Below are positions 5,667 through 26,996 of a DNA stretch of 64,000 nucleotides, in pieces (position 1 is the stretch's first letter; each line of letters starts with the position of its first letter). The notes below the pieces were generated by a model. That model searched no databases and was not told the DNA's origin. It worked only from the letters and a program-made list of their open reading frames with translations. Source of the DNA: a phage; sequence record PZ445451.1, one strand, 5' to 3'. A program made the translations under genes and the position numbers.

Positions 5667-6354
5667 TTAGTCGTTCCTCCGCTTGCTTAAAAATATTTAC
5701 ATCGGCTTCACAGCCTAAGTATTCTCTACCTGTTAAAAGTGCCGCAACTTGTGTTGTTGCACTTCCAGAGAAGAAGTCTAAGATTACATCTCCTTCGTTG
5801 GTATGTATATTAATAAGGTCACAAAACAAAGTCAAGTGTTTTTGTGTTGGATGAAAACGATCTGCTCCTTGATAGATAGGATACTCAAACACACCCTTAT
5901 GGTAGGAAGCATTGAAGGTTGGCTTCGAACCTTTAACACAAACAATAGCCATCTCTTTAGCGTTACTAAGATAGTTAACACCGCTGTTGATGGGTACAGG
6001 GTTTGTTTTAATCCATTCAATAGTACGGAACATACGAAAACCAAGCGGTTCAAGGATTTCACGTAGCTCCTGGATCTTCCAGATATCATACCAAACTATG
6101 CAAGTACCACCTTTTCTAAGCACCCTATAGGCTTCTTTGAATACTTCTTTAAAGTAAGGAATATCTACAACATCCCAATCACCAAAGTTGTAAGATACAC
6201 GGAATCTATCTGTATCTTTTCCAGTAGGCTCTCCAGATTGAAAATTTGTGTCACGAGAAATAGCATATGGTGGATCAGTAAGAATCAAATCTACACTATT
6301 GCTTTCGAGGGTTTGCAGGTAGTTTAATGCGGTGTTGTTTACAAATTCGCTCAT
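5623..6354 (-). CDS. DNA methyltransferase (DPPY motif, N6-adenine or N4-cytosine class)
   Basis: LILTDPPYA near N-terminus and FFSGSATT SAM-binding motif near C-terminus; motif order typical of beta-class amino-methyltransferases. Confidence 0.8.
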   Translation of the reverse strand: MSEFVNNTALNYLQTLESNSVDLILTDPPYAISRDTNFQSGEPTGKDTDRFRVSYNFGDWDVVDIPYFKEVFKEAYRVLRKGGTCIVWYDIWKIQELREILEPLGFRMFRTIEWIKTNPVPINSGVNYLSNAKEMAIVCVKGSKPTFNASYHKGVFEYPIYQGADRFHPTQKHLTLFCDLINIHTNEGDVILDFFSGSATTQVAALLTGREYLGCEADVNIFKQAEERLNEYTEQQNHPESTD

Positions 6355-9039: not shown

Positions 9040-12000
9040 CTAATGACAACTGGCCCATGAGTTACCAACATCGTACCCAGCAGTGAGAGGTACATTAAGA
9101 TTGTAATACTCACCAGCTTTATTAACAGCGATAGATGCTAATTCTCCAGCACGACTGTAGGCTGTAAACCAACCACCTTTCGGAGATTCATGTACGTTCG
9201 CCCAAATCTTGCCAGTACGTTTCTCTTCCTCTTCTTTCCAGGCATTAACTTTATCCAAACATTCTTTATCAATTTTCTTTTGTTCTTCTGGATCATCAAC
9301 TTGAGTCCAACCTAAAGATTCTTTAGAGAACCATTTAAAATGCACCAGATCACGAGTTACTTCAAGTTGTGCTTCATCGTGATATGCAATCATTTGTTGA
9401 ACGAATGACTTATTTTTCCAGTCATCAACAAAAAAGTCAACAGCTAATCCTTCTTCTTCGATAAGATCGTCGTAGATAACCATTGCTCTTTTTGCACAAA
9501 TAACACCACCACTCTGGAACAGAGAGTTAAGTATTGCGTGTGCAGATCGTGTAGGTACTTTTCTACCATCAATACCGAGAATGTATTTCTTACCTGTTTT
9601 AACCCAAAAGTCATGCAGACGTTCTTTAAGAAGCGCAAGAGGTTTTGCAGCTTCCCAGAAAGCATCGTATACAAGCTGTCCTGTATACATATCACTACCT
9701 ATAGTTTTTGCTACTTTTGCAGCTTGAGCACCATAAGTAATACCATACTTAACAGATTTAGCAGGGCTTCGTTCAAACTTACGACCAATAGTGTCAGAAA
9801 TACGTCGAGCCATCATTGTATGAACATCATTAGGTTTTTCCAATAATAGAGCATTACAATATTCGTGTGGTTCCTGCTCGTACCGCCAACAATTCCCTGT
9901 AATCGTGATGCAGTCTTTCTGACGCATAACCCATGTACCGAGTTCTGTTTGTGGACACCAAACATCTTCTACACCCCATTCTTCAATAGTCAGACTTTGA
10001 ACAGGGATGTGAGAGCGGTTAGCCAACGTTGCCACTTTTACTTTCTGGTCTTTCGTATTGAAGGCTACAGAAATATTACCCCCATGAACCAGGTATGAGG
10101 CAGTTAAGGCTGCTTCAAAAAGTTCTCCTGGGTTCTGCGCCCAGCGCCAAACAGGTTTTTGTTTATGTTTGTGCCAGTAACCATCCGCAATCAAAAAACC
10201 TTCCAAGAAAGCCACACGCTCGGCATGAGACATATTAACTACACGTTCTACCCACGGAACATCCCATTTACCTTGTTGAACAGAAGTTAAACTATTTACT
10301 TGATCTTGTTCCATGTTAAATGGAGCATTACAAATAATGTTATCTCCTGTGCAAAGCTCGGCAGTTGTTCTGACTTTAGGCACATAAGTATTCCCTGTAC
10401 TACGAGTATTAACATACCAACGGTGATCTGCTGTTGCACGATAAGTATGGGATTTTCCTTTAATCTCAAACGTCTTACTATTTTTATAGAAGACCTTACC
10501 TTTTACTTTAGTCCATTCTTTAAGTCCTGTTTCTGGGTTATATCCTAAGATTTCATCCCCTTCTTGTAGATCGTGATAACCAACCCAACCTTTACGGGTT
10601 AGTGCTTGTGCATCCATAGGTACACAGTAGTGTGATTCTATTTTTGCCTCAAGAGAATCAAAGTCATAACCAATTTGGAAGTATTTTGGAACTTCTACAC
10701 CAAATAAGTTACGCATTTCATATCCGTACAGAGATGTTACACGTGGGATATTTGCTACTAACCTATGTTTCATACGAGATGTAGCTGCATCACACGTTGC
10801 AGCAGGAGTTGGTATACGACCATCAGCCCTTACTGCTGCCAGATAACCTTTATCGTAATCCTCTTCATCTTCTTCCCAATCAGCACCACCACCTAGAATA
10901 GAGTTCCTACGGTGTTTATACGTAAGATACTGCACAATCTGCGTAGCATAAGGAAACTTTTCACCCAGTGCTTCCAAGTTAGGACAAATATCTTTCTCTT
11001 GCCCTTTTGTAAAGGAAGGGTTCGTAAGCACTTTAACACCACGACCTTTAGCTTTAGCAATACGATCTCTTAGTTTCCATTCCAAAGTTTCTGGTGTGCA
11101 CTCCAGATGATCACATCTGTCCTGGCAGAAGTTAGATGCTAACGTTTGATCAACATAGTCACGAATAGCTTTCTCCATTTGTGCTTCATCTTTCTTAATC
11201 TTAGTGCCAGATTTAAGAGTGATATCTTTATCTTTGTATTCAGATGGACTCCAACCTAAACCAACTAACCAGTTTTTAATATGTGTAGTGTCGTCTAAAG
11301 TAGCAGGTACTGTAGGATCACAAATAGGTTCTTCTGCTGGAATAGGGAGTTTAAACTCTTTACCTAAAGCAAATAACCACCAACCATCTTCTTTTTGTAC
11401 AAGTTCACCAGAATGTTTCTCTGCAAACTTTATCATGTTACTTGAAGGTTCACCATTCTTTTTAAACTGTAGTTTAGGTGGAATGAATGATTTCAAATAA
11501 CCTTTGGTAGCAGGTTTAGGAGGTAGCACAGGTTCTGCCTCTAAACGACATGCTTCCATTCGAGCATCCAGATCACGAATATTATCTTCTGCTTGTTTCA
11601 TATTGAAAGCAAAGCCACGGTGCTCTTGACGTGTAATAATATCAGCTACACGTTGTTCTAAGTTAAATGGTTCAGACCACTTATTATAATCACCCCACTC
11701 TTCCATCAAATAACGGAACACTGCGGTGTTAGCTTTGTTATCGTAAATACAGTAATACAGCATATCTGCTGCAAATGTTTTAAATCTTTCAGTTTCAGGG
11801 ATGTTTTTTCTAAAATCAATTTTAACATCCCCTCCAGCTTTCTTAGATAACTCTGCCAGACTATGACCACCGAAGCGATCAGGGTTTAGTGTCTTACTTA
11901 AGATCATAGTATCACAAATTTCAATGTTACTATTACCCCAAGTATTGTACTTAATACTGTAGTTGAGTTTAAAAAATAATTTAATTGCCAGTAAGTCGAA

Positions 12001-12354
12001 GTTAATGATGTTGTGTCCAACTACTTTGGTAATTTTATAGTTTGAATTACCTTTAAATTTACCTGTTCCATTTACAAAATCAGGAAAATCTTTAAGAGGG
12101 AAATGGGTATATTCTAAATGCTCATATTCCTCCAATCGGTATTCATACTTTCCGTCAGTCTCAATATACGGACGACCATCGAAAAGATATTTATCACCAT
12201 CATGGAAAGCAATAATCTCTCCAGTATCATGACTTTCGCACACAATACAGTGCATTGCAAAACTATCTTTTAAACGATATGGACTTGCCAAGTAATCTAC
12301 ACTTTCGTCATTAAGCAAGTTGTTACTTTCAATGTCGAAAGTAAAAGCTCCCAT
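9040..12354 (-). CDS. DNA polymerase family A with 3'-5' exonuclease domain, interrupted by an intein
   Basis: Motif A GYDFDSLEAKIESHY, motif B RSPAKSVKYGITYG, motif C AYHDE; AAGGAGG RBS; 245-residue insert between motifs A and B. Confidence 0.9.
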   Translation of the reverse strand: MGAFTFDIESNNLLNDESVDYLASPYRLKDSFAMHCIVCESHDTGEIIAFHDGDKYLFDGRPYIETDGKYEYRLEEYEHLEYTHFPLKDFPDFVNGTGKFKGNSNYKITKVVGHNIINFDLLAIKLFFKLNYSIKYNTWGNSNIEICDTMILSKTLNPDRFGGHSLAELSKKAGGDVKIDFRKNIPETERFKTFAADMLYYCIYDNKANTAVFRYLMEEWGDYNKWSEPFNLEQRVADIITRQEHRGFAFNMKQAEDNIRDLDARMEACRLEAEPVLPPKPATKGYLKSFIPPKLQFKKNGEPSSNMIKFAEKHSGELVQKEDGWWLFALGKEFKLPIPAEEPICDPTVPATLDDTTHIKNWLVGLGWSPSEYKDKDITLKSGTKIKKDEAQMEKAIRDYVDQTLASNFCQDRCDHLECTPETLEWKLRDRIAKAKGRGVKVLTNPSFTKGQEKDICPNLEALGEKFPYATQIVQYLTYKHRRNSILGGGADWEEDEEDYDKGYLAAVRADGRIPTPAATCDAATSRMKHRLVANIPRVTSLYGYEMRNLFGVEVPKYFQIGYDFDSLEAKIESHYCVPMDAQALTRKGWVGYHDLQEGDEILGYNPETGLKEWTKVKGKVFYKNSKTFEIKGKSHTYRATADHRWYVNTRSTGNTYVPKVRTTAELCTGDNIICNAPFNMEQDQVNSLTSVQQGKWDVPWVERVVNMSHAERVAFLEGFLIADGYWHKHKQKPVWRWAQNPGELFEAALTASYLVHGGNISVAFNTKDQKVKVATLANRSHIPVQSLTIEEWGVEDVWCPQTELGTWVMRQKDCITITGNCWRYEQEPHEYCNALLLEKPNDVHTMMARRISDTIGRKFERSPAKSVKYGITYGAQAAKVAKTIGSDMYTGQLVYDAFWEAAKPLALLKERLHDFWVKTGKKYILGIDGRKVPTRSAHAILNSLFQSGGVICAKRAMVIYDDLIEEEGLAVDFFVDDWKNKSFVQQMIAYHDEAQLEVTRDLVHFKWFSKESLGWTQVDDPEEQKKIDKECLDKVNAWKEEEEKRTGKIWANVHESPKGGWFTAYSRAGELASIAVNKAGEYYNLNVPLTAGYDVGNSWASCH
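9892..10626 (-). mobile_element. Intein in DNA polymerase with LAGLIDADG-like homing-endonuclease motif
   Basis: Starts with Cys right after motif A, TADH block B, LEGFLIADGY motif, ends ...ITITGN followed by Cys; removal restores normal A-to-B spacing. Confidence 0.65.
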
Positions 12355-12444: not shown

Positions 12445-12840
12445 TTATTTATTGTCAGCACTTAGTTGTACTTTAATAAGGCAATTAGGGACACCATTGG
12501 TATTTCTCAAGCCTACACGGTCAATTTTAACTGTTCCTGTTAAGCCACTAAAAGTGGAAACAATGTTATTAATGTTTTCATCCTTACTAGCGATATCAAG
12601 AACAACTTTATCACTAACATTTTTCAGCATACGATCTACAAGCTCTCCCACAAAACCACTGGTAGTTTGAATGAGAAGGTATAGGCAACCATCCTCAAAC
12701 CACAAATGTTCACCATAAGCATAACCGTATGGTTCTAATTCTAATCCGTCTTGAAATTTAAACTTAGCAATAGTTTTCGTATAATCATATGCTAAAGCAG
12801 AAGGGCATACCCCATAGAGGATGTTTTCGTTGTCTTTCAT
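12445..12840 (-). CDS. Hypothetical protein
   Basis: Start moved to internal ATG (MKDNENILYG) preceded by AAGGAG, which removes overlap with primase-helicase. Confidence 0.5.
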   Translation of the reverse strand: MKDNENILYGVCPSALAYDYTKTIAKFKFQDGLELEPYGYAYGEHLWFEDGCLYLLIQTTSGFVGELVDRMLKNVSDKVVLDIASKDENINNIVSTFSGLTGTVKIDRVGLRNTNGVPNCLIKVQLSADNK

Positions 12841-12850
12841 ATTTTTCTCC

Positions 12851-14623
12851 TTAATAAGAACCAGCAGAAATATTTTCTGGGTTACTTGTGTATTGATCGT
12901 AATCGTGAAGTGTAGCTGTTTTAATCTCATAGAAGAAACTACCTGCTGCACCAGTCTCTGAGAACTCACGGTTCTTTAGGATGTAGCAATATGTGCGGTT
13001 ACGTTCCATAGGATCTTCAGCTTGTTTATCACGCTCCAGCGCAATTGTGATACCAGCACCTTTAGCAAGGAAGCTACTACCCATTGCATCATCTTCTACA
13101 ATATGCTCATTACTATTGTTAGAAGACTTTTTAACGTGTGAAATTACAACAATGGTTATTGCGTACTCTTTCATAATGCGTTTGAGCCACGTCGCAAGTT
13201 CCTCTTGTTGTGACACGTCCATACCAGAAAGCAAATCAGAATAAGGGTCGATAACAAGAATGGTTACTCCGAAATAAATAATCATTTCCAGAACCTTCTC
13301 TTTAATCACATCTACGTTAGCTCCACGATCATCACAAACATAGAAACGTGGTGTTCCATCTTCCCGTTCGTAAAAATCACGAATCTTTTCTTCATTATCT
13401 TTTAAAATCTTTTCCTTCTCTTCTTTCGTTTTACGGTGAAGAGGGATATGCAAGAATGAAGACAGTAAGTTACGAGAATACTTCTTATACGTTGCCTCCA
13501 AAGATAAAATACCAAGAGTATGTTCTGGGTGTGCAAGAATAATGTGTTTCGTAATCTCGTTAACCAACAGTGTCTTACCGATACTTGTTTTTGCAAGTAT
13601 AACAGTAATTTCTTCTTCTACCAAGCCTCCACCTAACATATTCGAAGCAACACGCATGAATGGAGGAAGGGTGATCATTTTAGCTTCCAAGCATTCCAAG
13701 GCTGCTTCATACAGTACGTTAGAAGCGTAAACACCAGCAGGTGTGTACAGTTTAGCTTTGAAAAAGCGATCAATAAAATGATCAATTTTTCCTTCTACTA
13801 GTGCTTGGTTAGGATCTTTAACATCCGTTAGTTCCATCACGTAAACTTTATTACGTGGTAAGATTTTAACACATTTCTCAACTGCTGCACGTCCAGCTTC
13901 ATCATTATCCATACATAGAACAATCTTTTTAAATTGATCTAAGAATTTATAACGATGTTGAAGCTGCTTATGCAGAGATGTTTCGCCACAAGTACCAGAT
14001 ACTACAGCAGGAACAGGATATTTACCACCCTTGTTATAATCTTTTAGCATCTGTGTTGCAGCCAGCATATCGTGTTCACCACCAACGATTAGAATAGTAC
14101 CGCTGTGGTTACGATATTTAAACTCCCCAAAAAGATCACAATCCTTTCCTGTTTCACCGATAGGATGTGAGAAATCTTTTGGATCGATACGTTGTTTATA
14201 CCCAGCAATATTGTAATCTTTAGTTGTAGGGTATAGTGTTGAAATTACTTCGCCAGTAGCTTCATCGTACATATAGCGTACACCGAAAGGCTTAGAGATA
14301 TCTTCACGAATACCGCGATAACCTTTTGGATTAGTTCCAGTGCTGGCTTTTAGTTTATCATGTACTTCTGGATTAAACTCACTACCCAAGATATCCTCCT
14401 CTTCAATTTCTTCGCCGTGTGCATTTAACCATTTTTGATCAGGGATAGTAAAGCCACAAGAAAAACAATGTGCGCCTCGATGGTCTTCATCGGCATCTAA
14501 GCCATATACCATCAAATTGTTTTGTGATCGATCACGCCCTCCTTTCATACAACGAGGACACCCAGTATGTCCTTCTTGACTTAGATCAATGTTATACCCA
14601 TATTTATTTACAACATAAGACAC
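12851..14623 (-). CDS. Bifunctional primase-helicase (T7 gp4-like)
   Basis: N-terminal zinc ribbon CPRCMKGG...HCFSCGF, TOPRIM-like CMDNDEAG, Walker A AKTSIGKT and DnaB-like C-terminal domain. Confidence 0.85.
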   Translation of the reverse strand: MSYVVNKYGYNIDLSQEGHTGCPRCMKGGRDRSQNNLMVYGLDADEDHRGAHCFSCGFTIPDQKWLNAHGEEIEEEDILGSEFNPEVHDKLKASTGTNPKGYRGIREDISKPFGVRYMYDEATGEVISTLYPTTKDYNIAGYKQRIDPKDFSHPIGETGKDCDLFGEFKYRNHSGTILIVGGEHDMLAATQMLKDYNKGGKYPVPAVVSGTCGETSLHKQLQHRYKFLDQFKKIVLCMDNDEAGRAAVEKCVKILPRNKVYVMELTDVKDPNQALVEGKIDHFIDRFFKAKLYTPAGVYASNVLYEAALECLEAKMITLPPFMRVASNMLGGGLVEEEITVILAKTSIGKTLLVNEITKHIILAHPEHTLGILSLEATYKKYSRNLLSSFLHIPLHRKTKEEKEKILKDNEEKIRDFYEREDGTPRFYVCDDRGANVDVIKEKVLEMIIYFGVTILVIDPYSDLLSGMDVSQQEELATWLKRIMKEYAITIVVISHVKKSSNNSNEHIVEDDAMGSSFLAKGAGITIALERDKQAEDPMERNRTYCYILKNREFSETGAAGSFFYEIKTATLHDYDQYTSNPENISAGSY

Positions 14624-14635
14624 AGGATTCTCCTA

Positions 14636-14905
14636 CTAAAATGATTCGTTTGTCTCCATAATATATTGCATTTCCAAATCTTCCATATGTTTCTTAAATT
14701 GGTAAACAATTTCCGATGGGGAAATATCTATATCAAAAAGTTCTTTTGTACCAGAATAAAATCTAATACCATCAACAATAAGACCACCATAATAATCCCA
14801 ATCACTTTCTCGTGAGAAAGGGTTAGGTTCTTCATAATAGTAATCTACTTCAACAATAATAGGCTCTTTATTATCTTGTTTATACTCAAAATCAAAAGTG
14901 TTCAT
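14636..14905 (-). CDS. Hypothetical acidic protein
   Basis: 89 aa ORF packed between primase-helicase and glycosyltransferase genes. Confidence 0.45.
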   Translation of the reverse strand: MNTFDFEYKQDNKEPIIVEVDYYYEEPNPFSRESDWDYYGGLIVDGIRFYSGTKELFDIDISPSEIVYQFKKHMEDLEMQYIMETNESF

Positions 14906-15849
14906 TATAAATCCTCGATAAGCAGTCTGCGGGTTTCATTTAAATCATCAATATTGTAGTTATCTCTTACATACTTAGCAAGAGCCAATCCTTTCTCAAT
15001 ACAAACATCAGGAGATTCGATTAAGTATTCTACAATATCTTTCCACTCTTTAACTGAATCAGCAAAGAAGATTAGATCTTTAAATTCTTCAGTATAATAG
15101 TTCTCTCGTGGCGAACAAACGAGTGGCAAACCTTTAGCACCAGCTTCAAGAATTTTTAAATTACTTTTGGCATTATTAAAATGATTATTTACTAACGGAG
15201 CTATGGAGATTTGATGACCATCGTATGCTTCCATATAACACTCATAAGGACGAATACCTTCATAAACACAATCTGGTTGAATATTTTCTTTAATTTGCAA
15301 CCATTGAGCACTACTCAACTCTTCGTGATCTCTACGAAATCCACATAAAGTTAAATCTTTACCAAAATCAGGAAGAATTGCTAAATCATGTTTATGTGTT
15401 TCACTTCCCGCCCAAACCAGTGGACTTTTAGAATAACGATCTTTAGTAAGAACAAACTGTCCTTCATCAAAAGGTAATCCGTTAGGCACAATATGTACAT
15501 TATCATTGTATTGGCTTAATTCAACCTTTAATGCCGGAGTTGTTGTAGTTACAAGATCGCTTCTTTCAAGGAACCATTTTAGGTCATCTCGGATTTGATT
15601 TTCAAATAGTCCTTCAAGCATATGCCCTTCAGGAATAATTAAAGAATCATCCAGATCCATTACCAATTTAAACCCAAGTTGTTTAAGAGCCAGGAAACCT
15701 GGCTTTCCACGTGTTGGTACTCCATTGAACACAAAAATATTATGCTTAGGATTAATGGTCAGTTTGCGTTTATATGGCAAAATGATTCTATGAAAATCAC
15801 ATACACTATACTTTTCATTTCCGCGTGTGTCAAGAATAATATTAGGCAT
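14905..15849 (-). CDS. Glycosyltransferase, GT-B fold (paralog 1)
   Basis: C-terminal SNLKILEAGAKGLPLVCSP donor-binding-like motif; shares blocks CD(F/Y)HRI, VFN(G/R)V, DLDD, LTKDRYS with the adjacent gene. Confidence 0.55.
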   Translation of the reverse strand: MPNIILDTRGNEKYSVCDFHRIILPYKRKLTINPKHNIFVFNGVPTRGKPGFLALKQLGFKLVMDLDDSLIIPEGHMLEGLFENQIRDDLKWFLERSDLVTTTTPALKVELSQYNDNVHIVPNGLPFDEGQFVLTKDRYSKSPLVWAGSETHKHDLAILPDFGKDLTLCGFRRDHEELSSAQWLQIKENIQPDCVYEGIRPYECYMEAYDGHQISIAPLVNNHFNNAKSNLKILEAGAKGLPLVCSPRENYYTEEFKDLIFFADSVKEWKDIVEYLIESPDVCIEKGLALAKYVRDNYNIDDLNETRRLLIEDL

Positions 15850-15860
15850 ATAACTCCTTG

Positions 15861-16835
15861 TTAAAGACTTTCAATAACTTGACGACGCAGTTCATTGGCA
15901 TCTGCAAGATTATAATTAAGACGAACGTGTTCTGCAAGCATCATACCACGATCTTCTGTGTATCTAGGGTTCCTCATTAGCTTGACAACTTCATAATGCC
16001 AAGATGCTTTAGAGTCTGCATAGATAACAGCCTTTGCATCTACCGGATTGAAGTACGGCAGCACAGGAGAACAGATAATAGGAAGACCCTTTGCACCTGC
16101 TTCCAAAATCTTCAAATTGCTTTTACAGTTGTTGAAGTCATTATCTACCAGAGGAGCAATTGCAATACTGTGACCGTCATACACAGACATATACTCACCT
16201 AAATTTTTAATAGCTGGTTTATACTGTGCATTTGGAATTTTACGTTTTATTTTAACCCACTCCGCAGTAGTTAGATACTGACTGTTATTTCCAACAGGTG
16301 CAGAAGGATACACTTCATACCCTGCAATTGTCAATAGTGTATCATCAAATGTATTAGCTACAAGAGATAAATCAGGTTCATGGCTTGCTCCTCCAGCCCA
16401 AACAATAGGCGTGTCAGAATAACGGTCTTTTGTTAAAGTAAATTGACCTTCGTCGTAAGGCAGTGCGTTTCTAATAACGACAACATTACGATTTAAATGA
16501 CGAATTTTGTAAGCTAGGTATTCTGTTGTTACTGTAACAACATCTGCTAACTTAACCATCTCTACAATAGTTTTTGAGTGATTAGTAAATACGCCAGCCA
16601 TATAATGTTCAGGATTAAGCGAATAAAAATCATCTAAATCAACAATAATCTTAACACCTTGTGCCTTCAGGCGTTTAACTTCGTCTGATCCACGAGAATA
16701 CACTCTATTAAAAACTAAAACGTCTTTCTTAGGCTTAAACGTATTTCCCGCAAATGGCATTACAATACGATGGTAATCACAACCACTGCCTAACTTATTA
16801 TCACACTTAAGTACAGGAGTATTAGGATTTACCAT
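15861..16835 (-). CDS. Glycosyltransferase, GT-B fold (paralog 2)
   Basis: Same blocks as 14905-15849 including SNLKILEAGAKGLPIICSP; start set at internal ATG 6 nt after AGGAGG. Confidence 0.55.
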   Translation of the reverse strand: MVNPNTPVLKCDNKLGSGCDYHRIVMPFAGNTFKPKKDVLVFNRVYSRGSDEVKRLKAQGVKIIVDLDDFYSLNPEHYMAGVFTNHSKTIVEMVKLADVVTVTTEYLAYKIRHLNRNVVVIRNALPYDEGQFTLTKDRYSDTPIVWAGGASHEPDLSLVANTFDDTLLTIAGYEVYPSAPVGNNSQYLTTAEWVKIKRKIPNAQYKPAIKNLGEYMSVYDGHSIAIAPLVDNDFNNCKSNLKILEAGAKGLPIICSPVLPYFNPVDAKAVIYADSKASWHYEVVKLMRNPRYTEDRGMMLAEHVRLNYNLADANELRRQVIESL

Positions 16836-17508
16836 ATTTTTGAGCCTCCTCATAAGAGATAAAAGTTTTACCATTGCGAAGATCCTCCAGTGATTGTTTA
16901 TATTGTTCCCAGTTTACACCAATCCCCTGTTCTTTCTCTTCTTTTGACAGATTCGCAAAAGGTAAAGGATTATCTCCAAACACATCGTCAGGATGGATAA
17001 ACGCCATAATTCGAATAGGACATGGTACACCGAGAATGCCTCGGTTCAAACCTGCCAGTGGAACGCGCTGAATCCACTCTGCATCTTCATATCCATAACC
17101 GTGGGTGTATGAGCGGAAATAGCCAGCTTTCTCAATAACTGCACGGGAATACATACCAAACTGGCACATACCTAGTTCCCAAATAACCACCTCCCCTTCA
17201 ATACCTTTTACTTTATCTTTAAAGTATTCAGGCATACCAAAGAAATCCCAACCATTTTCCTTTGCCTGTTTTACAAAATATGTTTCCCACCCTGGAACAA
17301 CAGGGTAGCAATCATCATCAAAAATAAACCAGTAGTCATACCCTTCATCATAAAACTTTTTCATCAGTTCATTACGGGCATATGCAACACCTTTTCGTTC
17401 ACGATCATACTGTACAACAAAAGTAGCATTAGGATCAGTCACAAGATAATCTTTAAGAGGACGCTTACCTACAGTAATAACACCAACACCAATTTTTGTA
17501 TTTTCCAA
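16822..17508 (-). CDS. Glycosyltransferase, GT-A fold (family-2-like)
   Basis: FIFDDDCYP DxD-type motif and YGYEDAEW motif. Confidence 0.6.
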   Translation of the reverse strand: MENTKIGVGVITVGKRPLKDYLVTDPNATFVVQYDRERKGVAYARNELMKKFYDEGYDYWFIFDDDCYPVVPGWETYFVKQAKENGWDFFGMPEYFKDKVKGIEGEVVIWELGMCQFGMYSRAVIEKAGYFRSYTHGYGYEDAEWIQRVPLAGLNRGILGVPCPIRIMAFIHPDDVFGDNPLPFANLSKEEKEQGIGVNWEQYKQSLEDLRNGKTFISYEEAQKYGKS

Positions 17509-17517
17509 AATAACTCC

Positions 17518-18081
17518 TTAAATAATTTTATTCATGTCTTGACAATGTAAAAGGTGTGAAACAGCTTTTCTAGGATCATCATTACCTAAACGGTAGGTGT
17601 GAAATAAATATAACCCACGTAATAAACCTAGCCTTTTGTTGTTAGCATGTAATGCTTTAGAGAAAATTATATCAAACTGTATTGACCTTTCCTCAAAAGG
17701 GATTTCATTCCACAGACTCTTACGAAAGAGAAGAAAGAATCCTGCTAAGATAGCATCTGTAGGTACTTCCTCTATTGAGTTTCCCCATTCTAGATGTGCT
17801 CTTTTTGCAATCTCAATGTGGTGTAATATATTCGGATCTTCACTTCTTTCATTATTAAATAATTGATATGTTGATCCCAATCTGTTACAAGATGCACCAA
17901 GAACATCAAAATCAGGATTTGAACGGACAATTGATTCCAGCCAAGCAGGTTGTTCTGGAAGAAGAAACATTGTATCAATGTCTCTTAGGCAAATCCAACT
18001 ATCTTCTGGTAAGACACTTATTGTGTCATTGATACCTTTTCCAATATCTCCAGAAAGATAGGGAGTTATGTGAAATATCAT
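17518..18081 (-). CDS. Putative small glycosyltransferase-like protein
   Basis: ICLRDIDTMF DxD-like motif; clustered with three glycosyltransferases; weak assignment. Confidence 0.3.
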   Translation of the reverse strand: MIFHITPYLSGDIGKGINDTISVLPEDSWICLRDIDTMFLLPEQPAWLESIVRSNPDFDVLGASCNRLGSTYQLFNNERSEDPNILHHIEIAKRAHLEWGNSIEEVPTDAILAGFFLLFRKSLWNEIPFEERSIQFDIIFSKALHANNKRLGLLRGLYLFHTYRLGNDDPRKAVSHLLHCQDMNKII

Positions 18082-18138
18082 ACTCCCTCCGTATTATTAC
18101 TTTAGCATTTTTAGACTAAAAAGTCAAAATGGTTTTAC

Positions 18139-18333
18139 CTATTGATTACGTTTTGCGAGTTCCATTTGGATAGCTAAACTGTGATCTCGTGCTTCCATAT
18201 ACTCTTTATATGTTTCATTAAGATGATCACGACAAACATCACGCAGTTTAATCAGTTTATCTGTAGGGATACCACTAAGATCATCCCAAGATTTTACAAC
18301 TTCACCAGTATCATTGATCCCAATGGTTTTCAT
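18139..18333 (-). CDS. Hypothetical small protein
   Basis: 64 aa ORF in operon context. Confidence 0.4.
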   Translation of the reverse strand: MKTIGINDTGEVVKSWDDLSGIPTDKLIKLRDVCRDHLNETYKEYMEARDHSLAIQMELAKRNQ

Positions 18334-18589
18334 CTACAACCTCCTTAATTGCTACAGCACAGTTTTTGCAGATACACTGCCCTTTACCTTTAGAAATCTG
18401 GATGTAAGGTTCATTTTCATTTTCGCCCTTACGTGAGTCATATATTACAGAATTGAAGCACACAACGCAAATATTTTTTAAGATTGTATACTTATCAACT
18501 TTCTTTTTTGTTTTAAAGTTAACTTCAATAACATCAGCCATCAGTGTAACACTCCCAGTATATTGCTTTGTGACATAACCATAGAACAT
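18311..18589 (-). CDS. Cys-rich small protein, probable zinc ribbon
   Basis: CVVCFN...CICKNC paired CxxC motifs. Confidence 0.4.
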   Translation of the reverse strand: MFYGYVTKQYTGSVTLMADVIEVNFKTKKKVDKYTILKNICVVCFNSVIYDSRKGENENEPYIQISKGKGQCICKNCAVAIKEVVDENHWDQ

Positions 18590-18819
18590 TCAACATTATC
18601 GTGACTACGTGAAAAACGTTCCCAAACATCTTCATCGACTCGTAAAGCTATACAAGGATAGACGTTATCATTGATCATTTCAATTGAATAAACATCCACA
18701 TTGTCTTCGTCTTCGATGAACATCATTGCAAACTGTTCTAAATGTTTCCTAATGTAATGTACATCCTCTTCTGTAAGACCAATAACAAGATAACTTGCAA
18801 CGATAACGCCATCTTTCAT
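18541..18819 (-). CDS. Hypothetical small protein
   Basis: 92 aa ORF in operon context. Confidence 0.4.
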   Translation of the reverse strand: MKDGVIVASYLVIGLTEEDVHYIRKHLEQFAMMFIEDEDNVDVYSIEMINDNVYPCIALRVDEDVWERFSRSHDNVECSMVMSQSNILGVLH

Positions 18820-18829
18820 CTATATCTCC

Positions 18830-19339
18830 TTAGCGATAGAATTGATGTTCTTTGTAGCGGTACACTAGAACCATATCTTTTTCCCAGTGTGCTCTTATTG
18901 TAGATTTTTTAAAGTATAATGCTCCTTTTGTAATATCTAATGCAATTCGTAATTCTGGAAAATGCGTATCGAGATAAAGTAGACGTTCTGCTATAGCCTT
19001 AGCTTCCTTCCACTTATCACGTTCCATAACGTTGAATGTCTTTGTGTAAGAGAATTGTCCTTTTTGAAACAAAACTTCTTTTATAGTATCAGGGAAATAT
19101 GAATCTCTAGCCCTATTCAATACTACATTACCAACAGCAGACATACCGCGCTTTCCTTGATTACGACTTTCTGCATAGATTGCACAAGCTAATAGATTTT
19201 CTTTACTATCACGCTTTGTACACTTGTGAACTACTTTAGCAGTTTTTACGTTTGCAGCTTCGGCTTGCGCCACAACAGGTGTAAATGTAAAAGCAGTTAA
19301 GGATAGTAACGCAATTGCGACAAAGGTTTTTATTGACAA
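18830..19339 (-). CDS. Secreted cell-wall hydrolase (SleB-like), candidate endolysin
   Basis: Signal peptide MSIKTFVAIALLSLTAFTFTPVVAQA; CAIYAESRNQGKRGMSAVGNVVLNRAR...QKGQFS matches cell-wall hydrolase signature. Confidence 0.65.
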   Translation of the reverse strand: MSIKTFVAIALLSLTAFTFTPVVAQAEAANVKTAKVVHKCTKRDSKENLLACAIYAESRNQGKRGMSAVGNVVLNRARDSYFPDTIKEVLFQKGQFSYTKTFNVMERDKWKEAKAIAERLLYLDTHFPELRIALDITKGALYFKKSTIRAHWEKDMVLVYRYKEHQFYR

Positions 19340-19402
19340 ACTTGCCTCCTATTTTGTTAAACGAACTTTTATTGTAACACAGAAGAGGCTGTTTTGCAAG
19401 TG

Positions 19403-20086: not shown

Positions 20087-20683
20087 TTACTCGAACCAAT
20101 CGTCGCCAGCGCCAAACGCTTTAACTACATCGTAAATGTCAAGCCCAGCTTTACCTACACCATATGCTTTCAGTTTCCATTCACTGTCTTCCCGTACCAG
20201 GGAGGCAACGTGGCAAATGGTGTTACCTGCAAGTTCTGGAGCCAAGAAGTCAAAGTCCAGCAGTTCAACATTACGTTCATCATCGAAGATTTTAAGGAAA
20301 CCTTCGGTAGCGTGACCAAGGCGTTTCTTACCCGTTTCGTCATCAATAGTAATTACGAATGCAATTTCCTGTGCTTCAGCAGAGATATTATCCAGTGTAA
20401 CATCAATCTGCTCCATTTGTCCTACACCGTCACGAACATCTTCACCTGCAAAAGTAGAACGTTCAGGATCAAATTTCTGTGCGTAGCATACCAGGTGGCG
20501 AGGAGACAACAGTTCCGGCAGACCAGATGCATTGTGTCGGCAAATCAGAGCACTAACATCCAGATCCAGTTTTTCGTTAGATTTCCAAGAGAATTCCAGA
20601 CGAATACGTTTCAGTGCTGGTGCGATCTTTTTCAGAGAAACTTTTTCGCTAGAACCTTTTTTCAGGGAAATTTTCTGAGTCAT
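20087..20683 (-). CDS. terD: TerD-family protein
   Basis: Blocks LDLDVSALIC, GEDVRDGVGQMEQIDVTL, acidic IDDETG and C-terminal WKLKAYGVGKAGLDIYDVVKAFG match the TerD fold pattern. Confidence 0.8.
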   Translation of the reverse strand: MTQKISLKKGSSEKVSLKKIAPALKRIRLEFSWKSNEKLDLDVSALICRHNASGLPELLSPRHLVCYAQKFDPERSTFAGEDVRDGVGQMEQIDVTLDNISAEAQEIAFVITIDDETGKKRLGHATEGFLKIFDDERNVELLDFDFLAPELAGNTICHVASLVREDSEWKLKAYGVGKAGLDIYDVVKAFGAGDDWFE

Positions 20684-20755
20684 AATTTATTATCTCCTTT
20701 GTTGTTAATTTACGTTGTCTATTTTACTAATCTTTTCTACAAAGTCAAGCGTTTT

Positions 20756-21550
20756 TTACGCTTTTGCTCCAAATTTTTTAACCCACTCACCAAACTCTTC
20801 GGATAGTAGTTTATCGTAAAGTTCTTCGTCAGACAAGGACAAATCTGCAATACCGATAAAATCAACATTATCATATTCTTTTGCCAAGTCTTTCAGGAAT
20901 TTAAAGTTTGCATTACCTACACCAACCATAAACCAGTAAACAGGTGTATTGCGGTGTTTGTTCAGTAAGCTACGTACTGCTGAAGTATCCATGTTCTCCC
21001 CGTCAGTTTGGAAGAAAATCATTGCAGGAGTACGATCAACTTGTGCATCAGTATCTACAACCTGTTCTACAACAGTACGTGTAACTTCTACAAGTTCTTT
21101 TTTACCAGTTAGTTTAGCAAGGAAACCCTTAGCCGGAACTTCTTCATACTCAACGACTTCGCGTGTAATATTTTTCATAGGTACACTACCGAAGTATGTA
21201 TCATAGATCTCTTGCATTACTGGGGCATAAGCTGTACCACCATTGATGCAAACATTAGACATACAAGAGCCGACATAATCATCATATACATCAGCCGTTG
21301 CAGGAGGCAGTTCAAAAGAAGAACTATTGAAAGCCCACATGTCAATCTGTGCATTATCATCAAACTTCATACCAAACGGCAGCAGCTTACCTACAAAATC
21401 ACTAACAGTGCCATCACGATACAGCTCACACATACTACCCGAAATGTCTAAGGCGCTACCGACACGAAGAACAACATCGTTAATCTTTTTCTTACGCAGA
21501 GATACAGTAAGAGTTTCTTGACGTTTTTTAAGACTGATTTTATTGGACAT
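20756..21550 (-). CDS. von Willebrand factor A domain protein (TerY-like)
   Basis: MIDAS-type DISGSM motif, later FQTDGE; adjacent to TerD as in bacterial ter loci. Confidence 0.7.
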   Translation of the reverse strand: MSNKISLKKRQETLTVSLRKKKINDVVLRVGSALDISGSMCELYRDGTVSDFVGKLLPFGMKFDDNAQIDMWAFNSSSFELPPATADVYDDYVGSCMSNVCINGGTAYAPVMQEIYDTYFGSVPMKNITREVVEYEEVPAKGFLAKLTGKKELVEVTRTVVEQVVDTDAQVDRTPAMIFFQTDGENMDTSAVRSLLNKHRNTPVYWFMVGVGNANFKFLKDLAKEYDNVDFIGIADLSLSDEELYDKLLSEEFGEWVKKFGAKA

Positions 21551-21551
21551 A

Positions 21552-21821
21552 TTATTTCTCCTTTCTGAGTGTAATGTTAGTAACTTCTAAATCCACTTCT
21601 ACCATTTCTGTATCATATGAAATACAGCTAAGTTGACCTCTTTGTGAACCGTTCAGACACATCGCTTGGTTTGTATTAACCTTAATAAACACTAAGTTTC
21701 TGAACGTATCTAAACCAGAATCTTGATAGGCAACATAATATACAAATGTATCACCTGCGTCAAGTTCTCCAAAACATTTAGGTTCATCTGATTTGTCGTC
21801 TTTGATATTAAATTTAAGCAC
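21552..21821 (-). CDS. Hypothetical protein
   Basis: 89 aa ORF within Ter-like cluster. Confidence 0.45.
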   Translation of the reverse strand: MLKFNIKDDKSDEPKCFGELDAGDTFVYYVAYQDSGLDTFRNLVFIKVNTNQAMCLNGSQRGQLSCISYDTEMVEVDLEVTNITLRKEK

Positions 21822-22377
21822 TATCTCCTCCTTTACCTACTTTCCAACCTAAATAGAAAGCCTCTCTGGTGATTTTTTGCAACTCGTTTAAAGAGATAGT
21901 TACAACTAAATCATCTTCAATTTCTAGCTTTGAGTCTTCTTCTGTCTCAATGCAAGTATTATGCACTTTGTGGTAAGGATTGTCAACACGTTTAAATTTA
22001 TTATTTTCAGTGCTGAAGAAGCAATCTGGATCTTCTTCTCCATCACCCCAACCCTGGTTAGGGTCTTCTTCAGATCTTTCTGTTGGGATTTCACCTGTAA
22101 AGTGCTCTTCTAACACCATAGCAATACCATCCCCAAGATCGGAAGAGAACATCAAATTACAAACTTCTTCCCAAGGCATAGACCACTTGAATCTTTTACG
22201 ATTGCCATGTTTATCTTCTTCGTTAGAGAAAACACTACCATAGCTATCATAATTGCCATACATCTCTTCAACAACTTTACCACCTTTCAAAAGAAATAGG
22301 TAGCAAGGAGAGCCATCGAAAGAGGTAGAAAGAGCAGCATTACCAGACTCTTTGCACAAGAAACTAAAACATCCCAT
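21814..22377 (-). CDS. Hypothetical acidic protein
   Basis: 187 aa ORF within Ter-like cluster. Confidence 0.5.
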   Translation of the reverse strand: MGCFSFLCKESGNAALSTSFDGSPCYLFLLKGGKVVEEMYGNYDSYGSVFSNEEDKHGNRKRFKWSMPWEEVCNLMFSSDLGDGIAMVLEEHFTGEIPTERSEEDPNQGWGDGEEDPDCFFSTENNKFKRVDNPYHKVHNTCIETEEDSKLEIEDDLVVTISLNELQKITREAFYLGWKVGKGGDSA

Positions 22378-22577
22378 TATACACCAGCCTTAAGATCAAT
22401 TATAGCCAAAGTTGTTTCAGAGTGTGTTTGCTCGTCTACAGGTGCAGTCATATGATAATACAAAAAATCTTCAACATCATACCAATCTGACTCTTGACCT
22501 TGTTTCCAACCATCAATGAAAGCATCTTCCATAATGGTTTGTAACTCTTCACGAGTTAAGTGAATATCTTTACTCAT
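22377..22577 (-). CDS. Hypothetical small protein
   Basis: 66 aa ORF with start/stop overlap to neighbours. Confidence 0.4.
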   Translation of the reverse strand: MSKDIHLTREELQTIMEDAFIDGWKQGQESDWYDVEDFLYYHMTAPVDEQTHSETTLAIIDLKAGV

Positions 22578-22810
22578 TACACATTCTCCTCTTTTACCAA
22601 TTCCATCGTTGAACTATCAAAACCATCTTTAGAAGAATAGGTATAGACAGAACGTAGTTCTCGCAGGACAGTAAATACATTAGGATCATCTAACCAAGCA
22701 TCCTGGAGGAGAACATAACGATCTTCATTGTCGTACTGGACAGCGATCATAGAACCAGACAGTTTGTAAATTTTAATATTCATAATATATTTCTCCTTAA
22801 AGTAGACCAC
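22577..22810 (-). CDS. Hypothetical small protein
   Basis: 77 aa ORF, translationally coupled. Confidence 0.4.
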   Translation of the reverse strand: MVYFKEKYIMNIKIYKLSGSMIAVQYDNEDRYVLLQDAWLDDPNVFTVLRELRSVYTYSSKDGFDSSTMELVKEENV

Positions 22811-23900
22811 GTTTAACAGTTTGAATCATACCATCTTCAAGAGATTGCACTTCTTGAATGTAATCAATACGAGCAGCACGGGCTTCAGTGTTGATTCGGT
22901 TAGTTTCTTCCAACATTTTAACTAAGTTTTCTTGATCACGACGTAATGTTTCAATATCCAATACTTGACGATTAGCAAGTTGTGTAGCTTCAATCTGGTT
23001 TTGTGCAGCCAGATCACTACCCATTGCAATAGCAGCATTAAATTCATTCAGTACGTTGTTCTGTGTATCGGCTGCTTTCTTCTGGCGTAGACTTTCAATA
23101 TACATAGAAAAGTTTGCAGAGTAAGCAGGGATAACGTTATTCACAATATTACGGGCTGATCGCATCAAACTTGCAGATACTTTCTGCATACTTTGTACAC
23201 GTGGCCCCATCTGAACACAGAGTAAACGTAAGGCTTTCAGGTCTGCAATACGAATTTCAAGCAGATCCATAGTATCACGAGTACGTTTACGCTCTTCTAC
23301 TTCATTTTCAGGTAGTGTATTAAGGCGAACTTCTTCTTTTTCATAAGTAGCTGTTAGAAGCTCTATATCCCTGTTTAAGCTAAGAGCATATTTTGCAATA
23401 GCCTCTTCTAAACGTTGCAGATATCGTAAAGAATCTTCTTCTTTTTTCAAGTCTGTTTGGAGTATCTTTACCAAACCTTCAATACGGTTATTGATGGTGT
23501 CAAATTCTCCAAACAAATCTTCTTTCATACCTAAAACTTTCTTAACTAGTTTACCTAAACCTTTAGATTGTTTAATAGAGTTAGGATCAAGTTGCTTTGC
23601 TTGCTTAATAAGTGCAGTTAAACGTTCACTCATTTCATCTCCCTGAGATGAACGCTGGTGTTTAAGCACTTCAGCATTAAGGTTACGAAGAGTAAGTCCT
23701 GCATCAGCACCAACCTGTTCAATCTCTTCACGAGACATTGGAGGCAGCATTTGTACAGGGCGTGCAACAGCAGGGGCATATACAGGACTTGCATCCATAG
23801 CACTTGGAGCAAACAAAGACTTACTTTTTTCTGTTGTTGCCGTGAATACACTCATTTCAGACGGTTTGCTTTTTACGGCACTGATAAAAGGACTGGACAT
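22797..23900 (-). CDS. TelA-like (toxic anion resistance family) coiled-coil protein
   Basis: 367 aa largely alpha-helical/coiled-coil protein of TelA size, flanked by TerD, vWA and TerC genes; assignment from context and composition. Confidence 0.45.
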   Translation of the reverse strand: MSSPFISAVKSKPSEMSVFTATTEKSKSLFAPSAMDASPVYAPAVARPVQMLPPMSREEIEQVGADAGLTLRNLNAEVLKHQRSSQGDEMSERLTALIKQAKQLDPNSIKQSKGLGKLVKKVLGMKEDLFGEFDTINNRIEGLVKILQTDLKKEEDSLRYLQRLEEAIAKYALSLNRDIELLTATYEKEEVRLNTLPENEVEERKRTRDTMDLLEIRIADLKALRLLCVQMGPRVQSMQKVSASLMRSARNIVNNVIPAYSANFSMYIESLRQKKAADTQNNVLNEFNAAIAMGSDLAAQNQIEATQLANRQVLDIETLRRDQENLVKMLEETNRINTEARAARIDYIQEVQSLEDGMIQTVKRGLL

Positions 23901-23968
23901 TCAATTTCCTCCATATTCTTTAGTAGATGGTGATACCTCTGTACCACCATCATAACACAAATTAAGTA

Positions 23969-24820
23969 TTAAACAAACATATCTAAATAATTTGTAGTAA
24001 TAAATGCTCCATCTGCTTCCAGATTAACATAACCAGTAGCATTAGTGGTTAAGAAATCCAGATCGAAGGACTCTTTAACACCACGTACCTCAACACGAGA
24101 AATATCGAATACAGGTAGTGTAACAGCCTCTTCGTGCAATACCGTACCTTTGTAGGTTGCCTTAATGATAAACTTGATATTACCCGTTCCCGCATCATAC
24201 AAAACACTTTCAAAGCCTTTGAGAGTATACTTATCACCAGAGGTGAAGTGCAAAGTTGCTTTGTTTACAGTACGTTTTTTACGAGGAGTTCCTTTCACAC
24301 GTTTATGATCACTACGTTTTTTGTATTTAGGAATGAATACAAACGATACACTCTCAAGAAAGGTATCAACATCAAGGATTTTAATATCCTCTGTTGCAGC
24401 AAATTTTGAAGTCGTTGCATCAAAATGCTTTTCCCTGCGATCATACATAAAGATATCAAAACGATCTTCTAAATCAAACAAATTATGTATCTTAATTTCA
24501 GAATGTTTGCACATTGCAGCAACCTTAAACTCTTCAAAACGTGGGTGTTCTACAAGCTCTTCAAGTTTTACACCAAAGACAGTATATTGCTTCGAAGTCT
24601 TTTCTGGTGTTGGCATTACAGAAGCATAGTCCCCGATTGCGCTCTTAAAGCAAAATTGCTCTTGACCTGTATTTTTACCAACGAATTTACAGTATTCGTC
24701 ATCGTGCATACTTTCTTTGGTAGTACCAACAAACTCAAAACCATCTTTATTCTTCTCAAGAATTTCTTGATTAAAGATCCAACCTTCCAGGCGATACACT
24801 TTACCAACTTCTAGTTTCAT
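23969..24820 (-). CDS. Hypothetical protein
   Basis: 283 aa ORF within Ter-like cluster. Confidence 0.5.
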   Translation of the reverse strand: MKLEVGKVYRLEGWIFNQEILEKNKDGFEFVGTTKESMHDDEYCKFVGKNTGQEQFCFKSAIGDYASVMPTPEKTSKQYTVFGVKLEELVEHPRFEEFKVAAMCKHSEIKIHNLFDLEDRFDIFMYDRREKHFDATTSKFAATEDIKILDVDTFLESVSFVFIPKYKKRSDHKRVKGTPRKKRTVNKATLHFTSGDKYTLKGFESVLYDAGTGNIKFIIKATYKGTVLHEEAVTLPVFDISRVEVRGVKESFDLDFLTTNATGYVNLEADGAFITTNYLDMFV

Positions 24821-24855
24821 CTGTTTCTCCTTCTTATTTAATCTGTATTAAATTA

Positions 24856-25446
24856 TTAACGACGACGTGAGCTACTAAAACTACGTTTCGACGAAGAATA
24901 ACTTTTCGAAGACTTACTATAAGAGCTAATAGGACTTGAGTAAGACTTACGAGCAGAGTAATCACTATTCACTTTTGTTGTTGATGGGCGTGAATACGTT
25001 TGTACACTTTGCTGCTTAATTGTGTTTTGTTTAGTGGTTGTATATGTATTTACAGGTTTATCATAAAAACTACGCTTTTGTGTTGTATATGATTTACTGT
25101 TAGTTGTAGGAGCAGCATTGTTATTAATAATGGTTGTATTGCTACCGCCATCTCTATAACCACCACCGCCACTATTACCACTCAACATATGACCAAGAAG
25201 CATACCTGTAGCAAATTCACCTACACCAGAAGAACTACTACCACCTCCTTGCACAACAACTGTTGAAGGTTGTGCAGGTGCTGCTTGAACAACTTGAGGT
25301 GCAGGTTGATTTACATATTGTTCATCTACCATCTGATTTGGTGTTTGTTGGTAACGTTGATTTTGTACATTTTCAGAATCATCACAACCTACCAGCAATG
25401 CACTACCTAATACAACTGCAACAATAAAAGATTTAATGTTTTTCAT
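24856..25446 (-). CDS. Lipoprotein with low-complexity Q/S/T-rich region
   Basis: Start at internal ATG after GAGGG; signal peptide ending in LLVGC lipobox; serine-rich basic tail. Confidence 0.55.
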   Translation of the reverse strand: MKNIKSFIVAVVLGSALLVGCDDSENVQNQRYQQTPNQMVDEQYVNQPAPQVVQAAPAQPSTVVVQGGGSSSSGVGEFATGMLLGHMLSGNSGGGGYRDGGSNTTIINNNAAPTTNSKSYTTQKRSFYDKPVNTYTTTKQNTIKQQSVQTYSRPSTTKVNSDYSARKSYSSPISSYSKSSKSYSSSKRSFSSSRRR

Positions 25447-25639
25447 TTGTAACCCTCTCATTTAAAGTCTCAACACAATTTTTAAAATCCCTAGAGAAAC
25501 AATACATCTGTTCTCCGTTCCTGTTGATAGTAATTGTATGGTTATCAATGTATGTTGTCAAGATAAAAATCAAACAAAATAACCCTAAAGCAAAACAAAT
25601 ATTTTCAAACAGAATCCAAAGAACACGTAAAACCACCAT
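25433..25639 (-). CDS. Small membrane protein
   Basis: 68 aa ORF with one hydrophobic helix (FALGLFCLIFILTTYI). Confidence 0.35.
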   Translation of the reverse strand: MVVLRVLWILFENICFALGLFCLIFILTTYIDNHTITINRNGEQMYCFSRDFKNCVETLNERVTNEKH

Positions 25640-25654
25640 CAGATCACCTCAACA

Positions 25655-25672
25655 AAGCCCCCGAAGGGGCTT
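25655..25672 (-). terminator. Hairpin AAGCCCC-CGAA-GGGGCTT after TerC gene
   Basis: 7 bp stem followed by TTTGTT on minus strand. Confidence 0.5.
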
Positions 25673-25678
25673 AATGAA

Positions 25679-26656: not shown

Positions 26657-26733
26657 TCTCTTCTCCTCTTTAATGCGGAGGACAATCCTCCGCTCTATGT
26701 CTTATACTATAAACTGTTTTTAAAGAAAGTCAA

Positions 26734-26982: not shown

Positions 26983-26996
26983 ATAAAGATCCTCTC

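Follow-up and report, generated by a model that had tools for sequence, protein, structure and literature searches.

What does a strictly lytic Escherichia coli phage build with four glycosyltransferases encoded near its replication genes? The question is raised by a cassette of four glycosyltransferase (GT) genes on the minus strand of the phage sequence PZ445451.1, at positions 14905-18081 of the 64,000-nucleotide stretch that we analysed, here called the window (positions 32676-96675 of the record; the whole genome has about 150 kb and about 260 open reading frames, ORFs). Window bases 12800-19400 are 100% identical to Escherichia phage PaulScherrer (Bas60, MZ501100.1), a phi92-like Justusliebigvirus of the Stephanstirmvirinae, and 98.8% identical to the type phage phi92. 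The cassette itself is already known: its ORFs are bas60_0048-0051, the annotated gp163-166 of phi92. The literature that combines PaulScherrer, phi92 or the Stephanstirmvirinae with glycosyltransferase, rhamnose or glycosylation yielded speculation only and no functional experiment, and this subfamily is outside the range of recent DNA-modification surveys (the Durham collection, END nucleases). Our analysis suggests that the cassette builds a rhamnose-containing sugar chain on an acceptor other than phage DNA.

The enzymes and their sugar supply

All four ORFs match glycosyltransferase families in a PHROG profile search (E = 1e-78 to 1e-149), so they are not chance ORFs. GenBank labels two of the genes 'putative disaccharide synthase' and the other two 'putative glycosyltransferase', and RefSeq calls all four 'glycosyltransferase'. 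A sequence-only reading of the window had proposed a minus-strand cluster of four GTs, made up of two GT-B paralogues, one GT-A enzyme with a DxD motif and one small DxD protein; both the cluster and the enzyme classes were borne out. The first cassette gene is ORF4 (17518-18081; bas60_0051, phi92 gp166), which encodes a small GT-A-like DxD glycosyltransferase of 187 amino acids (aa). It is followed by ORF3 (16822-17508; 228 aa, TTG start; bas60_0050, gp165), a GT-A fold enzyme, and by the two GT-B paralogues, paralogue 2 being ORF2 (15861-16874; 337 aa in the PaulScherrer annotation; gp164) and paralogue 1 being ORF1 (14905-15849; 314 aa; bas60_0048, gp163). The genes are separated by gaps of 9-11 nucleotides (nt) or overlap. 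The start of ORF2 is ambiguous between the ATG at 16874 used for PaulScherrer and the ATG at 16835 that gives the 324-aa gp164 of phi92. Both are preceded by a Shine-Dalgarno sequence (AGGAGG or GGAGG), and in the long form the region homologous to ORF1 and to the PHROG profile starts at residues 17-20.

ORF1 and ORF2 share 41% identity (E = 2e-83), and the AlphaFold2 model of these paralogues (predicted local distance difference test score, pLDDT, 94) has the two-Rossmann-domain GT-B fold. In a structural neighbour search the closest relatives of ORF1 were GT4 enzymes and not the alpha-GT and beta-GT of phage T4. ORF1 exceeds the cut-off of PF13524 (26.8 bits, cut-off 25), whereas ORF2 stays below it, with 14.3 and 17.9 bits on C-terminal-domain Pfam signatures; ORF2 matches phrog_7162 at E = 3.1e-149. 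K228, S229, K232 and E235 of the C-terminal domain are invariant in 42 sequences and may bind the sugar nucleotide, and the second Glu of the classical EX7E motif is not present in these sequences. The model of ORF3 (pLDDT 87) has a GT-A fold with GlfT2, ppGalNAc-T, K4CP and TarP as neighbours, and its invariant residues are R16, D64-D65-D66 and E141-D142. ORF4 matches the 'glycosyltransferase' family phrog_14179 (E = 5.5e-113) and has no Pfam or NCBIfam match; D34-x-D36, N66-R67 and H161-x-Y163-R164 are invariant across 30 homologues. Searching the PDB with profiles of the three families gave only weak GT4 matches for the GT-B family, and the GT-A and ORF4 profiles yielded nothing of use. Most matches of a Foldseek search of BFVD were unnamed viral GT2-like proteins, which did not discriminate. 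An EarP-like arginine rhamnosylation of EF-P was considered and rejected, as EarP is absent from the best 60 structural neighbours. No transmembrane (TM) segment was found in any of the four proteins (the highest 19-residue Kyte-Doolittle means are 0.8-1.2), and all four enzymes are predicted to be soluble. Three are acidic, with isoelectric points (pI) of 5.1-5.6 (ORF4 5.6); ORF2 is the sole basic member (8.2-8.9).

The genome also carries a complete rmlBACD operon for dTDP-L-rhamnose, which lies outside the window, 69 kb from the cassette, between the genes for glutaredoxin and class I ribonucleotide reductase. RmlB, RmlA, RmlC and RmlD all score above their NCBIfam equivalog cut-offs, and within the subfamily rmlC has the same distribution as GT-B, occurring in Justusliebigvirus, Phapecoctavirus and the Klebsiella members. 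Together these results support the rml operon as a probable source of sugar for the cassette.

Distribution and gene neighbourhoods

The GT-B family is 95-100% identical within Justusliebigvirus, 73-77% identical in Phapecoctavirus and 37-40% identical in the Klebsiella phages of the Stephanstirmvirinae, where it is present as a single copy; beyond the subfamily only a few distant phages have it. The phi92 genes gp163-gp166 and the other Justusliebigvirus and Phapecoctavirus cassettes (PHROGs 7162, 2456 and 14179) are the same system, with 73-100% identity, the same gene order and the same flanks. The Klebsiella phages have a reduced cassette consisting of an ORF4 homologue and one GT-B. Five records named as Campylobacter phages with C. 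jejuni as host ('Campylobacter phage A145/A150/A110a…'; MG065645, MG065639, MG065689) are 99-100% identical to phi92-like phages of E. coli and are probably mislabelled or contaminant genomes.

On its 3' side the cassette is flanked by a small, acidic, conserved gene of 89 aa (14636-14905, minus strand; phi92 gp162-like; phrog_4240, E = 8e-35), whose ATG overlaps the stop codon of ORF1 (TAATG), and on its 5' side by a small conserved gene of 64 aa (18139-18333, minus strand; gp167-like; phrog_5932, E = 2.5e-27), which the phi92 annotation describes as similar to PVP-SE1 gp006. Both flanks are conserved in Seunavirus with no GT between them, and in Seunavirus GAP31 their homologues are separated by a single ORF of 107 aa. 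This indicates that the cassette is an accessory insertion in a conserved replication backbone, so that its site beside the primase tells little about the substrate. The primase-helicase is indeed nearby, as the sequence-only reading had observed. That reading had placed the cassette directly downstream of this gene, which is wrong: on the coding strand the cassette lies upstream (5') of it, with the gene at 14636-14905 in between. As a clue to the substrate the proximity counts for little, since the cassette is an insertion and its homologues are found elsewhere in packaging or late operons. A search of the coding strand from about 20.06 kb to 12.4 kb found no terminator-like hairpin, so the cassette shares its transcription unit with the downstream primase-helicase and with an upstream SleB-type cell-wall hydrolase. 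The presence of this hydrolase in the unit, together with the insertion between conserved flanks, argues against a link to replication.

Two regularities run through the gene neighbourhoods of distant homologues, namely a link to 6-deoxyhexose synthesis and siting with genes that are late or structural or encode surface proteins. An NDP-hexose (nucleoside diphosphate hexose) 4,6-dehydratase gene lies within the GT cluster in three related lineages from metagenomes, with dTDP-glucose 4,6-dehydratase as best match, and in Streptomyces phage Zuko a 4,6-dehydratase and a GT-B gene come just before the terminase. Such neighbours in independent lineages point to a connection with deoxy sugars. The dehydratase of Zuko, gene 4 (L007 1319-2380), is annotated as 'UDP-glucose dehydrogenase'; its best NCBIfam model is dTDP-glucose 4,6-dehydratase (E = 8.7e-57, below cut-off). 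An ORF4 homologue heads a large glycan cluster (L013) with GT-D, two TOD1-like genes, DegT, GDP-mannose 4,6-dehydratase, a methyltransferase and a Stealth gene. In the 36-kb phage L016, an ORF3-family GT-A (E = 1.7e-19) and a GT-B lie directly upstream of TerS, TerL, portal and capsid genes and are divergent from the replication genes. Locus L008 carries, between terminase and portal, a pair of ORF4-family genes together with genes for a GT2, a polysaccharide deacetylase, two methyltransferases and UDP-galactopyranose mutase. In four Pseudomonas genomes there is a lambdoid prophage in which NinG is followed, further on, by a Big_2 Ig-like (immunoglobulin-like) protein, a GT-A (E ~1e-76), a GT-B (37-38% identity), a metallopeptidase, terminase and portal, and the GT pair is thus in the late operon. 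In Burkholderia dolosa and Trinickia the GT-B (34-35% identity) adjoins a conserved inverse-autotransporter adhesin of the invasin type. This Burkholderiaceae locus (L010 3025-8440, L022 2807-8960) consists of the IAT_beta/Invasin_D3/Big_1 adhesin, a Thr/Pro-rich protein of 556-571 aa that has no Pfam family, and the GT-B, and is a candidate adhesin-glycosylation system. Genes for ThyA, TET or other base-modifying enzymes were seen in none of the homologue neighbourhoods examined.

Based on these observations we propose that the four soluble, cytoplasmic enzymes would assemble a glycan stepwise, supplied with dTDP-L-rhamnose by the phage RmlBACD proteins and with UDP-sugars by the host. As GT-B is the sole component common to all lineages and contexts, we infer that it is the initiating enzyme, which would recognise the acceptor and add the first sugar. 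Extension or branching of the chain would fall to the other three, the GT-A, the small DxD protein and the second GT-B. The glycan would be short, with two to four sugars including a 6-deoxyhexose, and the acceptor would most likely be a protein produced in the lytic cycle, probably one of the virion surface or the fibres that has Ig-like or Ser/Thr-rich regions.

Candidate acceptors

We consider it probable that the product of the cassette is a glycoconjugate other than DNA. A phage protein that carries a stepwise-built, deoxyhexose-containing glycan is the acceptor that we favour, as a serious but tentative possibility. We favour it because homologues lie in late and structural contexts with an Ig-like protein and adhesins as neighbours, and because there is a precedent of virus rhamnose pathways that feed virion glycans. 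Among giant viruses, virion glycosylation involves A064R in PBCV-1, and Mimivirus has a rhamnose pathway and GTs. Virion glycosylation was reportedly also described in mycobacteriophages of the Che8 type by Freeman et al. in 2023. By analogy, the cassette would work like known multi-GT systems for glycan assembly. The parallel with the Che8-type and giant-virus systems is a proposal, and no glycosylation is reported in the cryo-electron microscopy (cryo-EM) paper on phi92 (PMC13450770). A virion-glycosylation system of the Che8 type would be expected to have its GT genes in or beside the structural or late operon. The PaulScherrer cassette is in an operon on the replication strand, whereas its homologues do adjoin such genes in four cases, namely L016, L008, Zuko and the prophages of Pseudomonas. 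With the cytoplasmic GTs of adhesins (GtfA/GtfB and Gtf3 of serine-rich-repeat adhesins, SdgA/B, Aah/TibC) the cassette shares no detectable sequence family, and the link to adhesins consists of the gene neighbourhood in two genera.

Several points weigh against a phage protein as the acceptor. A cryo-EM study of 2026 modelled most phi92 virion proteins at the atomic level, those of capsid, cement, portal, connector, tube, sheath and baseplate, and says nothing of glycan density (PMC13450770); as flexible glycans are often invisible, this silence is a weak negative. A cassette among replication genes and an rml operon among nucleotide-metabolism genes form the layout that is expected for DNA modification (Olsen et al. 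2020, PMC7552041). The nearest Pfam family of ORF3, TAGT, includes DNA-sugar transferases. Moreover, the co-occurrence of the GTs with rml genes is limited to one subfamily and is therefore phylogenetically non-independent, and the context of the distant homologues, which have 26-43% identity, may not apply to PaulScherrer.

The sequence-only reading had left the substrate open, rightly in our view, and had suggested stepwise glycosylation of phage DNA as an anti-restriction hypermodification. In a related way Olsen et al. 2020 drew attention to the rml pathway and suggested, by analogy with T4, that rhamnose glycosylates hydroxymethylated nucleotides (PMC7552041). We find it improbable that rhamnose and further sugars are placed on a modified base, at low density or at specific sequences, and thereby evade defences other than the classical restriction-modification (RM) systems that were tested. 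The cassette does lie beside the genes for primase-helicase and DNA polymerase, the rml operon is among genes for ribonucleotide reductase, ThyX and thymidine kinase, and the GT folds bear a generic resemblance to the T4 GTs. T-even glucosylation, by the alpha-GT and beta-GT of T4 and a second, TAGT-family GT in T2 and T6, is similar in that the enzymes are soluble GT-B and GT-A proteins, have their genes among those for replication and nucleotide metabolism, and add sugars stepwise; in T6 the TAGT-family enzyme adds the second glucose on DNA (PMC13390438). TAGT is the best Pfam family for 12 of the 18 ORF3 homologues, and ORF3 has the R...DDD...ED pattern reported for GT-A enzymes that act on phage DNA. 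However, each of these matches is below the gathering threshold, that of ORF3 itself (PF20691, 23.3 bits against 27.5) covering profile positions 37-96 of 205, the nucleotide-binding half, and the motif (R...DDD...EDY/F in the New England Biolabs, NEB, survey of DNA-acting GT-A enzymes) is shared with the teichoic-acid GT TarP (bioRxiv 10.1101/2023.12.21.572611). In the same survey about 65% of GT-bearing viral contigs had no neighbouring gene for base modification, and a role in modifying DNA was considered unlikely for them. No nucleotide-modification genes were in view in the small phages and prophages that have the GT-A and GT-B pair. The T-even, TET and ThyA systems differ further in their partner enzymes, as we found no dCMP/dUMP hydroxymethylase or TET partner here, only ThyX, and hence no enzyme that would make the acceptor hydroxyl. 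All known dCMP/dUMP hydroxymethylases and hydroxylases derive from the ThyA type (PMC13326640). The thymidylate synthase of this genome is of the ThyX type with an intact HRxxSxxxxSxR motif, so it was rejected as a hydroxymethylase in disguise, and a Pfam scan of the 25 hypothetical proteins of at least 130 aa, which left proteins of annotated function and shorter ORFs outside, detected no TET/JBP and no ThyA domain. The earlier observation that the window holds no hydroxymethylase thus extends to the whole 150-kb genome as far as it was scanned. The genome encodes three DNA methyltransferases, a Dam-like, a Dcm-like and a second N6-adenine enzyme (window 5623-6354, minus strand; record 109141-110130 and 115341-115850). 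The Dcm-like C5-methyltransferase could feed a route from 5mC to 5hmC, but these enzymes need ordinary bases and thus indicate that ordinary A and C are present in the phage DNA. Maffei et al. 2021 found these phages 'exceptionally susceptible' to RM systems, although they have a putative dTDP glycosylation machinery (PMC8594841), and a later paper makes both points again (PMC10844046); the sensitivity reported for the phi92-like BASEL phages is the opposite of the T-even phenotype (PMC8594841). The acidity of three of the four enzymes and the insertion of the cassette also speak against DNA, and the T-even donor is UDP-glucose whereas the phi92-like cassette would use a dTDP-deoxyhexose. All this disfavours anti-restriction hypermodification. 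It is even harder to credit that a rhamnose-containing glycan is added to DNA by a chemistry that needs neither a ThyA-type hydroxymethylase nor TET, for example a sparse or sequence-specific one missed in plaque assays against classical RM systems. That would be the first deoxyhexose DNA modification; we know of no report of 6-deoxyhexoses on DNA.

Remodelling of the host envelope is rather unlikely but is a rival to be reckoned with, and several features fit it. Here soluble GTs at the inner membrane face would add rhamnose and other sugars to lipid A-core or to undecaprenyl-linked intermediates of enterobacterial common antigen (ECA), O-antigen or the N4 glycan receptor (NGR), and so mask the glycan receptors of the phage, either for superinfection exclusion or to keep progeny off debris. 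The lack of TM segments would be in line with peripheral GTs of the cytoplasmic face, rhamnose is a typical envelope sugar, the GT pair is also found in temperate Pseudomonas prophages, and these phages depend on LPS-core (lipopolysaccharide-core) glucose and on ECA- and NGR-type glycans (PMC8594841; PMC11990801). The sequence-only reading had considered that the enzymes might class with LPS or capsule GTs of known function, but none of the four proteins matches any NCBIfam model at E <= 0.1, curated LPS, capsule and O-antigen GTs included. GtrABC seroconversion resembles the cassette in being phage-encoded glycosylation with a possible target on the host surface; it relies, however, on a membrane flippase, a bactoprenol GT and a GT-C enzyme, and no flippase, polymerase or Gtr-like membrane partner is near the cassette. 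A strictly lytic phage also leaves little time for envelope turnover, the pair in the lambdoid prophage and in L016 is in a late or packaging operon and not in an att-proximal conversion locus, and the Burkholderiaceae homologue adjoins an adhesin and not an LPS or capsule cluster. Very unlikely, in our view, is the glycosylation of a soluble metabolite, with the GT-Bs acting as synthases of a disaccharide or small-molecule glycoside, whether a compatible solute or a nucleoside-like product of a module of Ter, phosphoribosyltransferase and HAD genes. In its favour are the terms 'disaccharide synthase' and 'TreT fold' in the annotation of PaulScherrer and phi92, and also the position of this module (TerD, vWA-TerF, TelA and TerC with phosphoribosyltransferase, HAD and macrodomain genes), which lies upstream of the cassette in the same orientation and is syntenic in relatives. 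On the other hand, four GTs and a dedicated deoxy-sugar pathway exceed the needs of a disaccharide, the cassette is not coupled to a phosphatase or a transporter, and a structural resemblance at 10-16% identity is what GT4 enzymes show in general. Ter genes also occur with different GT complements and are missing where the same GT families are found in L016, Pseudomonas and the Burkholderiaceae, which is why we rate a functional link to the Ter module low.

Neighbouring genes and the meaning of the pathway

A candidate sigma-70-like promoter with an extended -10 (18099-18127, minus strand; TTGACT, 17 nt, TGcTAAAGT, then GGAGGG and ATG), identified by its consensus match only, lies inside the 57-nt gap 5' of ORF4. 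Promoter-like matches are not in excess in this region (37 against 31 +/- 7 in shuffled sequences), and the terminator scan was likewise not above shuffles. The SleB-type hydrolase upstream (window 18830-19339, minus strand; Pfam Hydrolase_2, E = 6.5e-20) has an apparent Sec signal peptide (…VVAQA/EA), and a second endolysin is annotated elsewhere in the genome (record 118281-118781).

The Ter-type stress-response module, carried here by a lytic phage, occupies window positions 20087-29428 on the minus strand, 2-11 kb upstream of the cassette. It comprises TerD (20087-20683), a vWA-TerF-like gene (20756-21550), TelA (22797-23900) and TerC (25679-26656), followed by macrodomain, phosphoribosyltransferase and HAD genes (27213-29428). 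GenBank calls all but the last three genes 'hypothetical', and the set is syntenic in related metagenomic phages. It resembles Ter systems with a module for nucleoside-like metabolites that are said to have been described by Anantharaman, Iyer and Aravind in 2012. Within the same stretch (24856-25461, minus strand) is a predicted lipoprotein of 201 aa with a lipobox (…ALLVGC) and a long low-complexity tail rich in Ser, Thr, Gln and Asn. According to the GenBank annotation there are inteins in the DNA polymerase (9040-12354, an ORF of 1104 aa; intein ~9889-10623) and in a UvrD/Rep helicase (35618-38392; intein ~36590-37630). The phage has its three DNA methyltransferases and is nonetheless reported to be highly RM-sensitive.

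The phi92-like and phAPEC8-like phages are among the coliphages with the broadest host range and are candidates for therapy and biocontrol, and they spend eight genes, the four GTs and rmlBACD, on a glycosylation pathway. For these therapy candidates, and because the idea of rhamnose-modified DNA keeps being repeated, the product of the pathway merits attention. The assumption of 'rhamnosylated DNA', which several papers have passed on as speculation, is disfavoured by our results; if DNA were the acceptor after all, there would be a new base modification. If the envelope were the target, this would be a new kind of receptor masking by a lytic phage. If, as we favour, the virion is decorated, the glycan would affect the stability, immune recognition and pharmacokinetics of therapeutic phages. 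It might then be, and we put this forward with some reserve, the first glycosylated coliphage virion that is fed by a phage-encoded dTDP-rhamnose pathway, and virion glycosylation would extend from actinophages to the phages of enterobacteria.

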